Positions 2,524 through 48,043 of a stretch of 64,000 nt of DNA are shown here, piece after piece (within the stretch, counting starts at the first letter, position 1; every line of letters starts with the position of its first letter). This DNA is from Acidimicrobiia bacterium. Its GTDB lineage: Bacteria; Actinomycetota; Acidimicrobiia; Spongiisociales; ZC4RG35. The stretch is taken from positions 22,835 through 86,834 of the forward strand of contig DATKEC010000115.1 of NCBI GenBank assembly GCA_035544575.1. The letters are read 5' to 3'. The position numbers and the translations under genes are program-made. A model generated the notes under the pieces. The model ran no database searches. It was not told the DNA's origin and worked only from the letters and a program-made list of their open reading frames with translations.

Positions 2524-4034
2524 TGTCTCTCCTCGTAGCTCTGAACGGCCAGCATGAGTTCGGTGTGGGCGGCGCCGGGCGCAGATCGCGCCCGCAGCGT
2601 CGTCCTCAGCGGCCGCCCGACCCGGCGCTCCAGTTCGGCCGACACCAGTGTGGACGTGGCGTCGCGGCGGCCGGAGAGTGCGGCCTGCACGCGGGTGTTC
2701 GCCGAGCGACGCGCCACCGCGCGGATGCTGCCGATGACAGCGCCGGCGGCGGCGGCGAGTGCCACACCCACCGCCACTTCACCCTCCGAACGCCAGGAAT
2801 CGACCGTCATCGCCACACCGATCAGCATCGCCATCACCGCCGCATAGGACGGCATCCGAACCCGCCACCACCAAGCCGGCGCGGCGTCGAGCTCCGCGAC
2901 AGCGGTGGCGCCGATGGCGAGGGCTGCTGCTGCCACCTCGTCCTCCAGCTGGTTCTGGGTGACCGCCAGTTCGGTCCGCGTGGCGAGGTCGAGACCGCGG
3001 GCAGTTTCGTCGACCAGCCGACGGATCGGCTCGGCGGCCGAGGCGGGCACAGAAGCGCCTGCGGCAGTCACCGACGCCGCAAATCGCCTGGACCCGAACC
3101 ACGCCCCGATCTGGGCAGCGTCCCGGGACGCCACCAACTCGGCCGAGTTTGCCAGCTCCGCGTCCACTGCCTCCGCCACGGCAGCGGTGACCTCGTTCCT
3201 CGCCTCGATCCACCGCTCGGTGAATCCGGTTCCGCCCGGTCCACCCACCGGGCCGACGAGACGGTCCGCCGAGGCCACCAGCTGGTCGACGATTCGACGC
3301 GACACCACCGATTCGGTCGATCCCAGACGGCGGATCGCCGCCACGACCTCCTCGACACCGACAACCAGCCCGCTGGGCGGATCCCCGGCACTCAGGACGA
3401 TCTCCGGCTCGTCGATCCCGTCGGCAACGAGGGATCGGCGCAGGTCGGCACGGAGGGCACCTTGATCGCCCGGTGCCACCCGGTCGATCTGGTTCAGAGC
3501 GAAGATGAAACGATCGGCGTGGTCCGCCAGCGGTCGGAGGTGGTCCCGATGCAGGCGCGCATCCTGGTACTTCTCGGGATCGAGCACCCAGACAACGGCA
3601 TCCACCAGGGGGAGGATGCGGTCGACGGTCTGGCGGTGGTCCGTCACGACCGAATCGGTGTCGGGAAGATCGATGACCGCGAGCCAGGGATGGTCATCAT
3701 GGGCGACCCGGCAGGTCACACCGATGTCGTCGAGGAGCCGGGTGACGCCAGGCTCCGGATTGGCAGGGATCCAGGCGACTGGCTCAGAGGTGGTCGGGCG
3801 GCGGGCTCCGGGGGGCGAAACCTCTTCCCCCGCCAGTGCATTGAGGAGCGAGGACTTGCCCGAGCCGGTTCCACCCGCCAACGCCACCACGATGGTTTCA
3901 CCCAGGTACCCGGCGCGACGTCGGGCGGCCCTGCCCACTTCTGCCGATTCTTCGAGAATGTCGGTTTCGACCACGCCGACGCACGACGCCACCAGCCGAT
4001 CGTGGAGGTCCAGAAGCTCGCGCAGGTCAGGCAC
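2520..4034 (-). CDS. Dynamin-like GTPase (DLP), downstream member of a pair
   Basis: P-loop GGTGSGKSS, G2 RPTT, G3 DLPDTD, G4-like NQID, then a long helical region with a hydrophobic segment (AAVMAMLIGVAMTV). The likely GTG start at 4034 overlaps the upstream stop (GTGCCTGA), which supports this start over the in-track ATG at 4127. The 4-nt overlap of the Ser-rich stop with the MscS gene suggests an operon. Confidence 0.6.
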   Translation of the reverse strand: MPDLRELLDLHDRLVASCVGVVETDILEESAEVGRAARRRAGYLGETIVVALAGGTGSGKSSLLNALAGEEVSPPGARRPTTSEPVAWIPANPEPGVTRLLDDIGVTCRVAHDDHPWLAVIDLPDTDSVVTDHRQTVDRILPLVDAVVWVLDPEKYQDARLHRDHLRPLADHADRFIFALNQIDRVAPGDQGALRADLRRSLVADGIDEPEIVLSAGDPPSGLVVGVEEVVAAIRRLGSTESVVSRRIVDQLVASADRLVGPVGGPGGTGFTERWIEARNEVTAAVAEAVDAELANSAELVASRDAAQIGAWFGSRRFAASVTAAGASVPASAAEPIRRLVDETARGLDLATRTELAVTQNQLEDEVAAAALAIGATAVAELDAAPAWWWRVRMPSYAAVMAMLIGVAMTVDSWRSEGEVAVGVALAAAAGAVIGSIRAVARRSANTRVQAALSGRRDATSTLVSAELERRVGRPLRTTLRARSAPGAAHTELMLAVQSYEERQ

Positions 4035-41380: not shown

Positions 41381-41524
41381 GCTTTCCTTCTTTCGCCTGG
41401 TGAGTGATACCCAGCGGGCGCGACGTTGACACACGCTTTGCCCGATTTCTTCACGATTTCCTCACGAGTGGCCCACAGCTCCCAGGTATGAACCGCACCG
41501 TGACCGGGTACCTCACCCTCACGC

Positions 41525-42070
41525 ATGCGACACGCCGAGCACCACCTCCCAAATGACCTGAACGCGCCTGCCCGGAGCCGGCGTCTGGTCGAGGGTTGGA
41601 CGAGGAATCACCCTCGGCGTCATGAGATCGTCCTGGCCGTGAGCGAACTCGTCGCGAACGCAGTGACGCACGGTTCTCGACACTCGCCTGGCGCCGGCGT
41701 GACGCTCTCAATTGCCAAGGACGACACCTACCTGCGGGTCTGCGTCGCGCAACGTGGTCCTCCCTTCCAACCCGAGTTCGCCGGCCCCTTCAGTGAACCT
41801 CGAGGTCTGACGATCGTCGACCGGGGGGTTGACCGATGGGGCATCGACGAACACGACGACATCGTCGAGGTGTGGTTCGAGGTCGACGACGCGAGCCCCG
41901 CGGATCCGGCAACCGCCCTGCTCGCTGACGGTACTCTGGCGCCTAGCCACCGAACCGAACAGCGGGTCGAGAAAAGTGATCGGACCTATATTCGAAGTCG
42001 AGACCGTCGAGCGAGGCTCGCGGCGTCAGGTCGTCGTCCGGGGCGAGATCGACCTCAAGACTGCCCCTGA
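41525..42070 (+). CDS. RsbW-like anti-sigma factor / partner-switching Ser kinase (HATPase fold)
   Basis: ..EIVLAVSELVANAVTHG.. N-box, ..GLTIVDRGVDRWGI.. and VWFEV; its 3' end overlaps the STAS gene by about 100 nt. Confidence 0.65.
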   Translation: MRHAEHHLPNDLNAPARSRRLVEGWTRNHPRRHEIVLAVSELVANAVTHGSRHSPGAGVTLSIAKDDTYLRVCVAQRGPPFQPEFAGPFSEPRGLTIVDRGVDRWGIDEHDDIVEVWFEVDDASPADPATALLADGTLAPSHRTEQRVEKSDRTYIRSRDRRARLAASGRRPGRDRPQDCP

Positions 42071-42311
42071 ACTCGACGAGGCCCTCGATGGCCTGAAAGC
42101 CGATCCCCTGGTCGTGGACATGACCGACGTGACCTTCATCGACTCGACCGGTCTTCGTGTCCTCGTGATGGCGCGCAGCAGGGTGGAAGGCGACGGAGGG
42201 CGCTTCGTCGTGTGCGCCGCCGATGGCTCGGCCGTCGTGCGCACCATGCGCCTCGCCGGTGTGGCGTCCGACTTCCACGTAGTCGCCAGCTGCGACGAAC
42301 TCCCGGAGTGA
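41969..42311 (+). CDS. STAS-domain anti-sigma-factor antagonist
   Basis: ..QVVVRGEIDLKTAPELDEAL..VVDMTDVTFIDSTGLRVLV..; GTG start inferred. Confidence 0.7.
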
Positions 42312-43411
42312 CCGACACCTCGCCCGCGGACAACGACGGGGTCGTCGTCGAGATCAGACTGTTTCCGAGCCTCCGCGCTCCCTTCGTCGCCCGGCGTATC
42401 GTCGGATCGCTCATCACCAGCGGTCCCCGACTCCGGGCGATCGATGCTTCCCTCCTCGCCGGGGAGATCACGACGCTCGTGATCACCTCTGAACGGCCAG
42501 CCACGCTCAAGCTCGTCGAATCGGGACGGAGCATTCGGGTGGCGATATCCACCGACGAGGGTCCGATCGGGGAACCAGATGCCATCGTCACGGCGCTCCT
42601 GAACCGAGTCGCCGACCGGTGGTCGGCAGACGACTCGCTGTGGTTCGAGATCGATCTCATCCGGCGCCAAGATCTCAGCGAACTCCCCGACAACGATCTC
42701 TTCGGGCTGCTTCCTAACGACCGCGACGCGCGTGACGAGCTCTTCGAGCGCTACGCGGGGTTCGCGTCGGCGATGTCCCGGCGGTTCGGCGCCAGCCGGC
42801 AACGAGGCACCGACCTCGAACAGGTCGCACTGCTCGCACTCGTTCGCGCCATCGAGCGCTTCGATCCTGGCGTCGGCGTCAAGTTCACGAGCTTTGCCGG
42901 GCCATGGATCTCGGGGGCCCTCAAGCGACACCTCCGTGACCACGGCTGGTCGATGCGCGTGCCGCGCTCTCTCAAAGACGGATCGCTCGCTGTGAAGAAG
43001 TCGGCGGGCGAACTCGCCCAGGAGTTGGGCCGGGAGCCGACCCCCCAGGAGCTCGCGGTTGCCCTCGACATGGCGGTCGATGACGTTCTCGAGGCGATGT
43101 TGGCCAGCGACGCATACTCACTGACATCGCTGGACGCGCCGGCACCCAGCAGCGAGACCGGAAGCCTCGGCGAACTCATCGGCGTCGTGGACTCCGATCT
43201 GGCCACCGCCGAAGAGTGGCCGGCCATCGAAGCGGTGCTCGATCGCCTGAGCGACCGTGAGCAGCAGATCCTCTATCTCCGCTTTTTCGAGGATCTCACG
43301 CAGGCCGAAATCGCACCGCTCGTCGGCGTCTCCCAGGTCCATGTGTCTCGATTGCTCGAGAAGTCCCTCGAGCGGGTACGCAACCTGCTCGAGGATCCAG
43401 CCGGCGACTGA
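42307..43411 (+). CDS. Group-3 (SigB/SigF-like) sigma-70 factor with an N-terminal degenerate RsbW-like extension
   Basis: The GTG start overlaps the STAS stop (GTGA). The N-terminal ~125 aa are HATPase-like (..VVVEIRLF..LLAGEITTLVITS..IRVAISTDEGPIG..VADRWS..LWFEIDL) but with the N-box Asn replaced by Thr. Regions 2 to 4 of sigma follow (DELFERY..DLEQVALLALVRAIERFD..LSDREQQILYLRFFEDLTQAEIA..SQVHVSRLLEKSL). This is a single uninterrupted ORF. Confidence 0.7.
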
Positions 43412-43435: not shown

Positions 43436-45235
43436 TCACCCGGCGTTTGAGAGATCGCCTGTGCCAGCAGCGGGTCCTTCCAGCGCGACGATCAACACTG
43501 CTGCGTCGTCCAGCTGTCGGGGTCGCGACTCGATGAGTGAATCGGCGAGATCGTCCGCATCGGTTGTCGCAGCAGCCAGGCTCGCGGCCAGCGCCTTCAC
43601 ACTCTGTTCGATGTCGGCGCCGCCTCTCTCCTCGACGAGGCCGTCGGTGAAGAGCACGATCTGCCACGGCGGGACGAGAGTGATGACCGCCTCTGAGTAG
43701 CCCCCCTCGGAGGAGACGCCCACGGGCGAGCCCAGCGCTCCCGCCAGCATCTCCACGCCCGCCCCGTGGCGCACGAGACCCGGAAGGTGGCCGGCCCGGG
43801 TGTACACCAGCTGGTTGCGTGCGAGGTCGAGCAGGCCATGAAAGATCGTTGCCATGGTGTCCGAACCGCGCAGTGCCGCATCGAGCCGGGCGATCTGGTG
43901 AGAAGGGGACGGCTCCTCGGCCGCCAGGGCGATTCCGCGCAGCAGGTTGCGTGCCTGAGCCATCTGGGCGGTGGCGGCGGCGCCGTGGCCCGCGACATCT
44001 CCGATCGTGAGGGCGACCCGGCCGTCACTCACGTGGTACACGTCGTACCAGTCACCTCCGGCGCGCGTGAACTCCGAGGCTGCGTCGTACCGGGCGGCGA
44101 TCCGAACGCCTTCGACATCTATGAGCCTCGCGGGCAGAAACCATTCGAAAAGGCCCGCGGCGAGCTGGCGGTGTTCGTCGAGCGCTCTGGCTCGTTCCCG
44201 GGCTGCACCCACCGCGGCAAGTCCGGCGAGTACCGAGACGGCGAGCAGCGCGGTCAGACCGACGGTCTGCAGCAGCCTCATCGTTTCCGCCGATGACCGC
44301 AGATCGTCTGTGGTCGTCACCAAATCGGACTCGACGATGTCACCCAGGCTCCGAAGCGATGCCAACCGCTCCGACGCGGCCTGGAACCACACGCCGGGGT
44401 CGACGCGCTCGTCTCCCGTCCGGAGCGAGGCAAGCATCGCGCTGACGTCGTCGGTGTTCATCGCACTCAAAAAATCACCGACACCAAACGCGATCGCGTC
44501 GACCTCGATGAACCTGAGGGAAGAGAGATTGGTCCGCGCCTCCTGCTGCAGCAGCAACAGCCGGACGATCTCGTCCTGACCCAACGGCTCCCCCTCGGCC
44601 AGAACGCCCAGGACAACATCGCGTTGGCGTGCGAGGGCCTCGCCCGTTTCGAGGAGCCGCACCTCTGCTCTCACCCGGGCAGAAAGCGGTGAGCCGGCGG
44701 CGACACCCTCCACCCTGCGGGCACTGGAAATCACCACGCTGATGACCGCCGAATACGCCTCGACAGTGGAGCCCTCGCGAAAGCGCAGCGTGGCATCGCG
44801 CAACTCGTTCAGCGGTTCCGTCGCTTCGTCGATGTCAGCCAGCACGGGAGGTCCGTTGTCATCGACGATCGAGCCGCGCACCTGCCACTCGGCGCGCAGG
44901 CGGTCGAGCGCCTGATCGGTGCTTTCCTGAGCGGTCACATAGGACTCCCGGATCTGCACCGACGAGTTCGTCAGCCACATCTCGGCGACCCCCCTCTCGT
45001 CCTGGAGCGCTTCGACCGCGTCACGCAGCCGCGCCGCGAGATCGACGGCGATCCCGCCGCGCTCGACCATCTCCACCCGATCCTCTCCGCTGCGCACCCC
45101 GACAACCGTGACGACCGCAACTCCCGCCACAGTCAGGACCGCGAACACCACGGTGATCCACACCCGTCCCAGATTCCTGTCGCCGGGTGCGAGCAGCCAG
45201 CGCTGTTGGCCGGGGGATGGATCTGCTGGGAGCAC
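43436..45235 (-). CDS. Membrane-anchored sensor PP2C (SpoIIE/RsbU-type) phosphatase
   Basis: N-terminal TM, extracytoplasmic/linker region, and a C-terminal PP2C domain (..GDVAGHGAAA..LFTDGLVE..); converges on the sigma gene. Confidence 0.75.
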   Translation of the reverse strand: MLPADPSPGQQRWLLAPGDRNLGRVWITVVFAVLTVAGVAVVTVVGVRSGEDRVEMVERGGIAVDLAARLRDAVEALQDERGVAEMWLTNSSVQIRESYVTAQESTDQALDRLRAEWQVRGSIVDDNGPPVLADIDEATEPLNELRDATLRFREGSTVEAYSAVISVVISSARRVEGVAAGSPLSARVRAEVRLLETGEALARQRDVVLGVLAEGEPLGQDEIVRLLLLQQEARTNLSSLRFIEVDAIAFGVGDFLSAMNTDDVSAMLASLRTGDERVDPGVWFQAASERLASLRSLGDIVESDLVTTTDDLRSSAETMRLLQTVGLTALLAVSVLAGLAAVGAARERARALDEHRQLAAGLFEWFLPARLIDVEGVRIAARYDAASEFTRAGGDWYDVYHVSDGRVALTIGDVAGHGAAATAQMAQARNLLRGIALAAEEPSPSHQIARLDAALRGSDTMATIFHGLLDLARNQLVYTRAGHLPGLVRHGAGVEMLAGALGSPVGVSSEGGYSEAVITLVPPWQIVLFTDGLVEERGGADIEQSVKALAASLAAATTDADDLADSLIESRPRQLDDAAVLIVALEGPAAGTGDLSNAG

Positions 45236-45313: not shown

Positions 45314-48043
45314 CTACGGACTCTTGCGGACCACAGCGGGGAGGTCGTCGATGGACGGGAACCAGCCCTGGCGCACCGGCTTGACCCGGATCCGGGCATC
45401 CACGACCCGCACCCCGTTCCCGGGCTCGAGAACCATCACCGGATTGAGGTCCATCTCGGTGATCTCCGGAATCGCCGAAGCCAAGGCGGAGATCCGCAGG
45501 ATGGTGTCGACGACGGCGTCGACATCCCCAGCAGGGAAACCCCGATATCCGTCCAGGAGCCTGGCTCCCTTGATCTCTCGCACGATCTCGCGGGCATCCA
45601 CGTCCGTCAGAGGCGTCAGCCGAAACGCCACGTCCTGCAAGAGTTCGACGTACACGCCGCCGAGCCCATAGACGACCAGCGGTCCGAAGTTGGGGTCTTC
45701 GGTCACCCCGATCAACACTTCATGGCCACCTTTGACCATTTCCTGGACCAGCACGCCCTCATGTTCGGCCACCGCCGCGGTCACCGACGCGAACCCAGCT
45801 CGGACGGCCTCTTCACCGACGACGTCGAGCAGCACGCCTCCGACATCGGACTTGTGAAGGGCGGATTCCGAGATCACCTTCAAGACGACCGAAGCTCCAA
45901 TCTCCCGAGCCGCCTCCACGGCCTCGTCCGGCGTCGTGACAGTCCTGGATTTGGGGAGGCTGAGCCCGAATGCCGAAAGGACGGCCTCGGTCGCGGTCGG
46001 CTCGAGCCACGCTCCCTTTTCGCCGGCGCGGGCGAGGACGTCACCCACGACCGCGCGGGCCACGCCAACCTCGATGCCGGACAGTGGCGGAACCTCCCCG
46101 GGGTCTCGCAGCAGCCACTCTCCATAGCCGACCGAACGCGACAGCGCGATCGCCGCAGACTCCGGGAAGGAGTAGGTCGGAATCGCGACTCGCTCAGACC
46201 GGAGGAACGCGGCGGCAGTGTCCGATTGCATGAAGACCGAAAGGAGGGTGGTTGGACCGTCATAGCTCTCAGCCGCGATGCGCAACGCAGTCGCCACCTC
46301 CTCCACGCCGGCATCGGAGGTCGGCACGTAGATCACGAGCAGGGCATCCACCTCCCCGCTCTCCAGGATGGTCGACACGACGTGGGAGAACTGCGCTGCT
46401 CCCGCGCCGGCGATCATGTCCACCGGGTTGCGGAAGGACGCCTCCGCCGGGAGCTTCGCACGCAACGCGTGTTGAGTCGCATCCGAGAGTTCGGGGATGT
46501 TCAGACCGTTGGCCTCGAGCGCATCGGCCGCCAGGATGCCCGGGCCGCCGGCATTCGTGACGACGCCCACCCGGCGTCCTTTCGGAACAGGTTGAGTCGA
46601 CAGCAACGACCCCACCGCAAAGAGCTCCTCGAGAGTATCCACACGGATCACCCCCGTCTGGCGGAACAGAGCATCCACCGCCACATCGAGTGACGCCAAG
46701 GCGCCGGTGTGCGACGACGCCGCCCTGCTGCCCGTTGTCGTCCGCCCAGACTTCACAGCCACGATCGGCTTCTTGCGGGCGACCCTGGGTGCGATGCGGG
46801 CAAACCGTCTCGGCGAGCCGAACGACTCGAGGTAGAGCAGGATTACGTCGGTCTGCGGATCGTCCTCCCAGGCCATCAGCAGGTCGTTGCCCGACACGTC
46901 CGCCTTGTTGCCGACCGAAACGAATTGACTGATCCCGAGCCCCGAGCGCAAGGCATATTGGAGGATTGCGATGCCCAAGGCGCCGGATTGTGACGACATG
47001 GCCACGTTGCCGGCGGGTGGGTAGACCGGTGCGAATGTGCCGTTGAGGTTCACCGATGGTGCCGTGTTCAGCAGTCCCATGCAGTTCGGACCCACCATCC
47101 GCATCCCGGCGTTGCGGACGAGGTCGAGCAGTTCGGCCTCGAGATCAACGCCGTCGCCTCCGATCTCGGAGAACCCGGCGGAAATCACAACCAGACCGCG
47201 AACGCCCGCCACGTCGCACTCGCGAACCACCTCGAGCACCTGCGCGGCCGGGACCACGATGAACGCCAAGTCGACGGTGTCAGGGACGTCGACGATCGAC
47301 GGATACGCCCTGACCGCGTTGACCACCTGGGTGCGGGGATTGACCGGGTAGAGGGTGCCCGTGTACCCGGTGTTCAAGAGGTTCCGGAAGAGGGTGTTGC
47401 CGATCGAGCCTTCGCGGGTGCTCGCGCCGATCACCGCGATCGCACGTGGGAAGAACAGCGGGAGAACTGAAGCGGTCACCGCGCGCCGCTCTCGCTCCTC
47501 TGCCCGGGCGCGGGCATCGTCGGTGTATGCGACGGGGAAGTCGACCGTGAAGATCCCGTCCTCGACCGTTCGCTTGAGTTCGTAACCGGAGTTGCGGAAC
47601 ACCCGCATCATCTGAACGTTCTCCGGCAGGACGAAAGCCCGGAATCCCGAGATGCCGTGATCGCGGGCGTAGGCGGTGATGAGTTGCAGGAGCGAGGTCC
47701 CGATGCCGTGACCCTGCATCTCGTCCGTGACCGAGAACGCCACTTCGGCCCGCGCGGGATCGTCCGGTTCGGCGTCATACCTCGCCACGCCCACCATTCG
47801 ACCGTCGAAGAGCGCGACGAGCGCCATTCGGGTCGAGTAATCGACCGTCGTGAAATATGTCACCTCTTCGGGGTCGAGCGAAGCCTTGACGCGGAAGAAG
47901 CGGTAGTACCGGCTCTCCGGGCCGAGTCGCTCGAAGAAGTCGACGAGGAGATCGGCGTCGGCGGGCGTGATGGGACGCACCCGAACGGTCTGGCCGCTGC
48001 GGGTGACGATGTCGAGTTCGTATTCGGACGGATAGTCGGCCAC
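45314..48043 (-). CDS. Pat-type protein lysine acetyltransferase (N-terminal GNAT + NDP-forming acyl-CoA synthetase/CoA-binding + ATP-grasp)
   Basis: GNAT motif ..VTDEMQGHGIGTSLL.. at the N-terminus, then CoA-binding ..IAVIGAS.. and ATP-grasp domains; the domain order is the actinobacterial PatA type. Confidence 0.8.
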   Translation of the reverse strand: MADYPSEYELDIVTRSGQTVRVRPITPADADLLVDFFERLGPESRYYRFFRVKASLDPEEVTYFTTVDYSTRMALVALFDGRMVGVARYDAEPDDPARAEVAFSVTDEMQGHGIGTSLLQLITAYARDHGISGFRAFVLPENVQMMRVFRNSGYELKRTVEDGIFTVDFPVAYTDDARARAEERERRAVTASVLPLFFPRAIAVIGASTREGSIGNTLFRNLLNTGYTGTLYPVNPRTQVVNAVRAYPSIVDVPDTVDLAFIVVPAAQVLEVVRECDVAGVRGLVVISAGFSEIGGDGVDLEAELLDLVRNAGMRMVGPNCMGLLNTAPSVNLNGTFAPVYPPAGNVAMSSQSGALGIAILQYALRSGLGISQFVSVGNKADVSGNDLLMAWEDDPQTDVILLYLESFGSPRRFARIAPRVARKKPIVAVKSGRTTTGSRAASSHTGALASLDVAVDALFRQTGVIRVDTLEELFAVGSLLSTQPVPKGRRVGVVTNAGGPGILAADALEANGLNIPELSDATQHALRAKLPAEASFRNPVDMIAGAGAAQFSHVVSTILESGEVDALLVIYVPTSDAGVEEVATALRIAAESYDGPTTLLSVFMQSDTAAAFLRSERVAIPTYSFPESAAIALSRSVGYGEWLLRDPGEVPPLSGIEVGVARAVVGDVLARAGEKGAWLEPTATEAVLSAFGLSLPKSRTVTTPDEAVEAAREIGASVVLKVISESALHKSDVGGVLLDVVGEEAVRAGFASVTAAVAEHEGVLVQEMVKGGHEVLIGVTEDPNFGPLVVYGLGGVYVELLQDVAFRLTPLTDVDAREIVREIKGARLLDGYRGFPAGDVDAVVDTILRISALASAIPEITEMDLNPVMVLEPGNGVRVVDARIRVKPVRQGWFPSIDDLPAVVRKSP

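Follow-up and report, generated by a model that had tools for sequence, protein, structure and literature searches.

A SigB/SigF-like sigma factor carrying an N-terminal RsbW-like domain with a degenerate ATP site in an uncultured member of the Acidimicrobiia

Textbooks present partner switching as a model of bacterial stress and developmental signalling, in which a STAS antagonist, an RsbW-type anti-sigma factor, a PP2C phosphatase and a sigma factor are as a rule separate proteins. A stretch of 64,000 nucleotides (nt) from an Acidimicrobiia bacterium (assembly GCA_035544575.1, contig DATKEC010000115.1, positions 22,835 to 86,834 of the forward strand; hereafter the window) contains a gene in which two of these parts are found on a single polypeptide. 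This gene, at 42308-43411 on the plus strand, encodes a protein of 367 amino acids that is composed of an RsbW-like pseudokinase domain followed by a SigB/F/G-type sigma factor, and the identity of these parts can be considered secure, with very little room for doubt. In the order of the window it is preceded by a gene for a free-standing RsbW-like protein (41525-42070) and by a STAS gene (41976-42311), and it is followed by a convergent gene for a NIT-PP2C protein (43436-45235).

The reading frame of the fusion gene is uninterrupted from its GTG start (42308-42310) to its stop codon (43409-43411), and the start shares bases with the stop codon of the STAS gene (42309-42311) in the sequence GTGA. 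A first-pass annotation of the window had described this single open reading frame (ORF) and its overlap correctly, apart from placing the start one base early, at 42307. The same 367-amino-acid protein, with an identical start, has been deposited at NCBI from an Acidimicrobiia metagenome-assembled genome (MAG), and in the alignment of database matches the close relatives start at the equivalent position. The frame is open from 42212, where an in-frame GTG was considered as an alternative start and rejected; the extension would be Arg-rich and would run out of frame over the STAS gene, and it is also contradicted by the orthologues and the NCBI record, all of which begin at the position of 42308. 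Past the start, the first in-frame ATG, GTG or TTG codons are a GTG at residue 58 and another at residue 78, both within the N-terminal domain, and an ATG at residue 156, within sigma region 2. Because the internal starts lie either in the N-terminal domain or in region 2, no stand-alone sigma factor is translatable from the fusion gene, and the earlier statement that no internal start separates the two halves holds.

The sigma part extends, as had been proposed, through regions 2 to 4, all three of which are recognised by Pfam above the gathering cut-offs. Region 2 (PF04542, Sigma70_r2, 1.3e-13) spans residues 145-214 (42740-42949), region 3 (PF04539, Sigma70_r3, 7.7e-15) residues 229-291 (42992-43180) and region 4 (PF04545, Sigma70_r4, 1.3e-15) residues 310-358 (43235-43381). 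The top NCBIfam family of the fusion protein is SigB/SigF/SigG (TIGR02980), which matches residues 139-361 and covers profile positions 2-226 of 227 with 218.9 bits, slightly short of the curated cut-off of 234.35, and the sigma part is treated here as a divergent member of that group-3 family. Its best sequence relatives in the PDB are 8x6g_H, entered as 'RNA polymerase sigma factor', and 1l0o_C, which is the sigma factor chain of the SpoIIAB complex. In the same comparison region 4 matches 8jzt_A, the sigma-4 fragment of Mycobacterium tuberculosis SigF that was crystallised with RsbW, at 3.5e-13 over residues 294-362.

The N-terminal domain (N-domain) comprises about 110 residues (residues 10-118; 42335-42661) and is connected to sigma region 1.2/2 by the linker IRRQDLSELPDNDLFGLLPN (residues 119-138; 42662-42721), which is modelled with a predicted local distance difference test score (pLDDT) of 87-90 and which, in the alignment of relatives, is kept in both length and sequence. 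Pfam and NCBIfam scans of residues 1-128 of the window protein return no match at E<=1, and precomputed matches to PF13581 are present in a few of the fused relatives (P0052, P0053, P0056, P0092, P0097 and P0118). A word-indexed homologue search was blind to the domain, with no matches to the domain alone and 15 with a profile; relatives with 96% identity along their entire length are nevertheless in the same database, and negatives of this search are unreliable for short divergent domains. By BLASTP, the N-domain aligns with the HATPase_c_2 protein encoded two genes upstream at 26% identity over 122 amino acids (E 3e-7), with SELVANAV of the free protein opposite GEITTLVI of the N-domain. A profile built from 54 fused N-domains matches this upstream ORF at E 5e-16 and, using HMMER, identifies 18,165 representatives among 1.84 billion proteins, most of them free proteins of 115-160 amino acids; when compared by hhalign with 40 of these small free proteins (all but one of them with a PF13581 match), it aligns with 99.9% probability (E 5e-32).

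Structural comparison leads to the same family. The AlphaFold2 model of residues 1-122 (pLDDT 91.8; predicted template modelling score, pTM, 0.85) has the order beta-alpha-alpha-beta-beta-alpha-beta-beta, and in a Foldseek search against the PDB ranks 1-16 are all RsbW, UsfX or SpoIIAB chains, with template modelling (TM) scores of 0.64-0.77 and E-values of 2e-5 to 1e-3. The six best PDB profile matches are likewise all anti-sigma factors (SpoIIAB and M. tuberculosis RsbW), and the latter (RsbW/UsfX) is the closest solved relative both by profile (E 0.008) and by fold (E 2e-5). On these profile and modelling grounds the N-domain can be assigned firmly to the RsbW/SpoIIAB branch of the GHKL fold, with a Bergerat-type alpha/beta architecture. 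The HATPase-like domain of RsbW topology that had been proposed at roughly 125 residues, with HHpred-style comparison or structure prediction as its check, is thus borne out by BLASTP, hhalign, AlphaFold and Foldseek at a slightly smaller size.

The fused architecture is present in 89 of the 120 best database matches, proteins of 332-442 amino acids in which N-domain, linker and sigma part are all aligned and which are 37-96% identical to the window protein; ten further fused representatives were found in an exhaustive search of 1.8 billion proteins. The relatives derive from NCBI, ENA, JGI and Logan assemblies, and those with names are Acidimicrobiia or Actinomycetota MAGs. A scan of GTDB species genomes yielded five loci, all from Acidimicrobiia MAGs, a figure that under-samples the taxonomic range of the fusion since the scan used a narrow N-domain alignment. 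One mundane explanation is that neighbouring rsbW and sigB genes were merged by a sequencing or assembly frameshift or by stop loss in this MAG, given that these genes are adjacent and often overlapping in canonical operons and that the free RsbW-like ORF nearby apparently did lose its stop codon. The continuous architecture nevertheless recurs in all four assembly sources and across the full range of identities, as well as in the ten additional representatives, the linker is conserved in length and sequence, and there is no usable internal start codon. By these comparisons the fusion is conserved in many independent assemblies and is not a frameshift artefact, a possibility to which we would attach only a vanishingly small chance; the N-terminal extension that the first-pass annotation suggested looking for among orthologues is shared by many relatives. 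Searches of the accessible literature turned up no account of an RsbW-like domain at the N-terminus of a group-3 sigma factor, and the architecture, visible in databases as both Pfam domain types on some relatives, appears to be unstudied.

Alignment with SpoIIAB and RsbW indicates that the N-domain has lost its ATP site while retaining particular residues. Glu53 corresponds to SpoIIAB Glu46, and Leu57 occupies the position of SpoIIAB Asn50, the Mg-ATP ligand, leaving a degenerate N-box, E53-I-T-T-L57 (42464-42478), which retains the Glu but has Leu where the Asn should be; the replacement of the canonical E-x-x-x-N-A by GEITTLVIT, with loss of the ATP-binding Asn, had been recognised correctly from the window sequence. 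The connection between the strand at residues 75-82 and the helix at residues 92-101 is only about nine residues long in the AlphaFold model, so that both the ATP lid and the G2 box are missing. The domain has no G-x-G-L motif, the Asp of the G1 box (DxGxG) is not a conserved feature of the clade, and a leftover D-E-G at residues 83-85 is not kept within the clade. The N-box Asn is retained in only 6 of the 89 fused relatives (8 of 99, or about 8%, when the ten further representatives are counted), whereas free homologues in the same match list have the Asn in 123 of 132 cases (93%) and the G1 Asp in 116 of 132. This pattern fits a kinase function that would have become dispensable after tethering.

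The order of events can be approached through the few exceptions. Three fused proteins in which the N, G1 and G2 boxes are all intact, P0052, P0053 and P0056, are placed apart from the large clade without the Asn when a rough tree is built from the sigma part, which suggests that degeneration came after fusion, the neighbour-joining tree being too rough to tell one fusion event from several. Within the close clade the mean pairwise identity of the N-domain is 47% compared with 51% for sigma region 3; the domain is about as conserved as that region and is therefore under selection and not a decaying remnant. When the 54 N-domains are aligned, only Arg29 (42392-42394) is invariant, and its counterparts are Arg20 of SpoIIAB and an Arg of M. 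tuberculosis RsbW. Arg20 of SpoIIAB is said, in work associated with Garsin in 1998 and Campbell in 2002, to contact both sigma-F and SpoIIAA. The position of Glu53 is occupied by Glu in 81 of the 89 fused domains and by Asp in 7 more. In active GHKL kinases the N-box Glu is the catalytic base.

Directly upstream of the fusion gene, the STAS gene (41976-42311, plus strand) encodes an anti-sigma-factor antagonist of 111 amino acids that is matched by Pfam STAS/STAS_2 and by TIGR00377 (6e-19; 67.9 bits against a cut-off of 53.45). Its DSTG motif provides a candidate phosphoserine, Ser57 (codon 42144-42146), and the serine of the D-S-[STA]-G motif is kept in all six STAS loci checked. Overlap between the STAS stop and the sigma gene start was read from the sequence in the window and in the related loci L001, L009 and L010, and from gene-call coordinates in L012 and L015; L010, L012 and L015 are distant relatives in which the STAS gene again lies directly upstream and overlaps the sigma start. 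A STAS gene followed by a gene for an RsbW-like domain and a sigma factor corresponds to the canonical rsbV-rsbW-sigB or spoIIAA-spoIIAB-sigF order in which the last two genes have merged, and the fused domain is therefore, by position, the descendant of the cognate anti-sigma factor.

The convergent gene at 43436-45235 (minus strand) encodes a candidate sensor phosphatase in which a NIT (nitrate/nitrite-sensing) domain (Pfam NIT, 2.4e-19), flanked by two hydrophobic segments, is followed by a PP2C domain (Pfam SpoIIE, 4.4e-37), an arrangement that suggests an extracytoplasmic nitrate or nitrite input to the phosphatase. The same four genes are syntenic in L001/L002, two labels for the same contig, at 69% identity, and in L009 at 44%. 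The window and the loci L001/L002, L003, L009, L010, L011, L013 and L014 all have a PP2C gene beside or close to the fusion gene; in the more distant loci the proteins are of PAS-PP2C, GAF-PP2C or plain PP2C type and not NIT, and both the PP2C gene and the free HATPase_c_2 gene change place. In L003, L011 and L013 a third HATPase-like ORF is inserted between the STAS gene and the fused sigma gene (3583-3942, 3660-4004 and 3163-3504 of the respective loci). These ORFs encode more degenerate proteins of 113-119 amino acids with no Pfam match, and their stop codons overlap the sigma start in L011 and L013, a gap of about 58 nt being present in L003. Beyond the phosphatase gene the module is adjoined by a gene at 45314-48043 (minus strand) for a 909-amino-acid Pat-like protein with GNAT acetyltransferase, ADP-forming CoA-ligase and ATP-grasp domains, which is also syntenic in L001/L002.

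The free-standing RsbW-like protein encoded at 41525-42070 (plus strand) is 181 amino acids long and matches HATPase_c_2 (PF13581, 5e-12). Its domain spans approximately residues 9-131 and is followed by an Arg-rich tail of 57 amino acids, the reading frame of which crosses the intergenic gap and continues for 95 nt into the STAS gene (41976-42070) in another frame. Orthologues end 9-28 amino acids past the domain, at about 123 amino acids (123 in L001), and the long tail probably reflects either a sequencing error or the loss of a stop codon. The sequence GGTAT-N16-GGGTAC (41485-41511, plus strand), 14 nt upstream of the ATG, resembles a promoter of the SigF/SigB type and may be there by chance; it is not conserved in orthologous loci and was dropped as evidence of autoregulation. 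In alignment with SpoIIAB the free protein has an N-box, SELVANAV, with both Glu and Asn, and a G2-like R-G-L motif, and it has Gln in place of the G1 Asp. Nine related loci (L001, L003-L005 and L007-L011) have His, Asn, Gln or Tyr at the G1-Asp position, so that the free partners beside fused sigma genes keep the Asn and are without the G1 Asp in ten of ten loci (41745-41765 in the window). The first-pass description of this gene as a canonical RsbW-type kinase is thus upheld as to the family and the N-box, and not as to its being canonical. The two paralogues seem, from their motifs, to have lost different parts of the ATP site.

The first-pass annotation had proposed that the extension inhibits the sigma factor or is a decoy for the STAS protein; what speaks for such roles is indirect, namely the conserved equivalent of SpoIIAB Arg20, the translational coupling of the STAS gene to the sigma gene, and a closest solved relative that is itself an RsbW without the Asn. 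The most likely reading of this arrangement is a tethered, kinase-dead anti-sigma domain that acts in cis and is released by unphosphorylated STAS protein, a model that is drawn by analogy with known partner switches and that we regard as evenly poised between right and wrong. A cognate RsbW-type anti-sigma factor would have become fused to the N-terminus of a group-3 sigma factor, with loss of its ATP site afterwards. The tethered pseudokinase domain would bind the sigma domains of its own chain and thereby keep the factor off RNA polymerase, and the unphosphorylated STAS protein would compete for that surface of the N-domain, in the vicinity of Arg29, and free the sigma part, such that the partner switch would occur within one polypeptide. 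Whether Ser57 of STAS is phosphorylated would depend on two enzymes: the membrane NIT-PP2C phosphatase, which probably responds to nitrate or nitrite outside the cell, and a kinase, for which the free RsbW-like paralogue two genes upstream is the likeliest candidate. The fusion, the fold, the missing ATP motifs, the conserved Arg and the gene order with its conservation are observed, whereas binding in cis, release by STAS and the identity of the kinase are the elements that we infer. M. tuberculosis RsbW/UsfX has been solved both with SigF sigma-4 (8jzt) and with the STAS protein RsfB (8ih8), and it too is without the N-box Asn, having DEVCTRLIR in the profile alignment. In Mycobacterium smegmatis the anti-sigma factor RsbW1 is without kinase activity and a separate protein, RsbW2, is the kinase (PMC7693655).

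The consistent company of a free RsbW-like gene allows a different and rather unlikely interpretation, in which the fused, ATP-dead protomer would pair with the free protein as an asymmetric heterodimer, together constituting a two-protomer anti-sigma unit in which the free, N-box-bearing protomer contributes the ability to bind nucleotide or to act as a kinase. Of the 14 distinct loci examined, 12 have a free HATPase_c_2 gene along with the fused sigma gene, and the product of this free gene is atypical in that the Asn is kept and the G1 Asp always gone, against 116 of 132 unlinked homologues with the Asp, which suggests co-adaptation. SpoIIAB, moreover, holds sigma-F as a dimer, with a stoichiometry of 2:1 (PDB 1L0O, which is among the fold matches of the N-domain). 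Contacts between RsbW3 and RsbW1 exist in M. smegmatis (PMC7693655). The position and strand of the free gene vary by locus, however, unlike those of the tightly coupled STAS gene, and L015 has a STAS gene and a fused sigma gene with no free partner nearby. In its fullest form, which is doubtful to the same degree, RsbW would be split into obligate, complementary halves, one ATP-dead and welded to the sigma factor, the other free, with the N-box but without the G1 Asp, which together with the STAS protein would form an asymmetric 1:1:1 switch. If true, this would mean that one half of the anti-sigma factor resides on the sigma factor itself. More generally, tethering would repeatedly render the kinase function superfluous and give a single-polypeptide switch of a kind that is not known to have been described for group-3 sigma factors.

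The mycobacterial paralogues also provide a precedent for a protective role, in which the N-domain would serve as a decoy that titrates either the free RsbW-like protein, as the true anti-sigma factor, or the STAS protein, or else would dock STAS to the sigma factor. RsbW3 of M. smegmatis, a kinase-negative RsbW homologue, binds and antagonises the anti-sigma factor RsbW1 (PMC7693655), the fused domain keeps the partner-binding Arg and has no ATP motifs, and the role of genuine anti-sigma factor could fall to the free RsbW-like protein of the operon. We nonetheless hold such a decoy to be quite improbable, as the fused domain occupies the place of the cognate anti-sigma gene in canonical operons, its nearest relative of known structure is an anti-sigma factor in complex with sigma-4, and fusion of a decoy one to one with each sigma molecule would leave a free anti-sigma factor largely pointless.

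Conservation of the linker, and the confidence with which it is modelled, would also suit a pro-sigma factor from which an inhibitory N-domain is cleaved at the linker, with the STAS protein in an accessory role only; the models would be the Bacillus factors pro-sigma-E and pro-sigma-K, or Streptomyces SigH, which is processed. N-terminal processing has been reported for SigB-like sigma factors of Streptomyces (PMC9205884). In the neighbourhoods of the loci examined, however, there is no conserved protease gene, the full partner-switching set of a STAS protein with its Ser, a PP2C protein and an RsbW-like protein indicates a reversible switch, and proteolytic release would not require conservation of the partner-binding Arg; cleavage therefore seems to us distinctly improbable, more so than a decoy.

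Several observations weigh against a tethered domain released by STAS, which is the reading preferred here. The model of the full-length fusion protein has a pTM of only 0.55, which gives little guidance on a cis contact, and a linker of about 10-20 residues may restrict the reach of the N-domain to sigma-3/sigma-4. A simple cis arrangement does not reproduce the dimeric hold of SpoIIAB on its sigma factor, and it does not account for the retention of Glu53 in a domain whose ATP site, Asn included, has otherwise gone. The candidate kinase is without the G1 Asp in all ten loci, and its activity is uncertain. Among the individual loci, L015 has no free RsbW-like or PP2C gene in the stretch seen, and L014 has no STAS gene directly upstream of the sigma gene.

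A lineage with a covalently attached anti-sigma module would constitute a natural experiment in which the need for RsbW binding can be set against the need for kinase activity at a fixed local concentration, and the ATP site has been lost in more than 90% of the fused members. The NIT-PP2C input suggests a nitrate- or nitrite-responsive regulon of the general-stress type in uncultured Acidimicrobiia, and a compact switch consisting of a STAS protein and one other polypeptide could serve synthetic circuits.

The mycobacterial RsbW (UsfX, Rv3287c) and M. smegmatis RsbW1 are actinobacterial, like the N-domain, and are its best match by profile and fold; they bind a SigF-type sigma factor and a STAS antagonist, and the role of kinase is delegated to the paralogue RsbW2 (PMC7693655), but they are free-standing proteins of about 140 amino acids that act in trans. 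SpoIIAB and RsbW of Bacillus (PDB 1L0O, 1TH8 and 6M36) share the fold of the N-domain (TM 0.70-0.77) and the operon logic of STAS, anti-sigma and sigma factor, and the equivalents of Arg20 and Glu46 are kept in the N-domain. They differ in their ATP lid and their complete set of N, G1 and G2 boxes, in phosphorylating their STAS partner, and in being separate polypeptides, a dimer of SpoIIAB acting on one sigma factor.

Other fusions within these systems combine different parts. Rv1364c of M. tuberculosis (RsbU-RsbW-RsbV, PDB 3ke6) resembles the window protein in having partner-switching modules in one chain, and the RsbW-like domain in it matches the N-domain weakly by fold (rank 27) and the free paralogue by sequence; it has no sigma factor, its domains being of phosphatase, kinase-like and STAS type. 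Fusion within partner-switching systems is further exemplified by TciR and other REC-RsbW proteins (PMC12826045). ECF sigma factors with fused regulatory extensions, such as ECF41 and ECF42 (reference cited in PMC4598750), resemble the fusion in that a built-in regulatory domain replaces a separate anti-sigma factor, but they are group-4 factors with C-terminal extensions of unrelated folds (SnoaL-like and TPR) and have no STAS/PP2C partner switching.

A close architectural counterpart is sigma-SsdA of Actinoplanes missouriensis, a sigma factor of SigB/F/G type with a C-terminal STAS domain that was described in 2023 and presented by its authors as a unique case, the first in which a sigma factor has a domain of this kind (PMC10733313). 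Both it and the window protein are actinobacterial sigma factors of this type fused to a partner-switching module. In sigma-SsdA, however, it is the STAS domain that is fused, at the C-terminus, and the RsbW-like domain is on the partner SipA, whereas in the window protein the RsbW-like domain is fused, at the N-terminus, and the STAS protein is free. The fusion described here thus complements the sigma-STAS fusion of sigma-SsdA, and extends the division of anti-sigma and kinase roles between paralogues that is known from mycobacteria.

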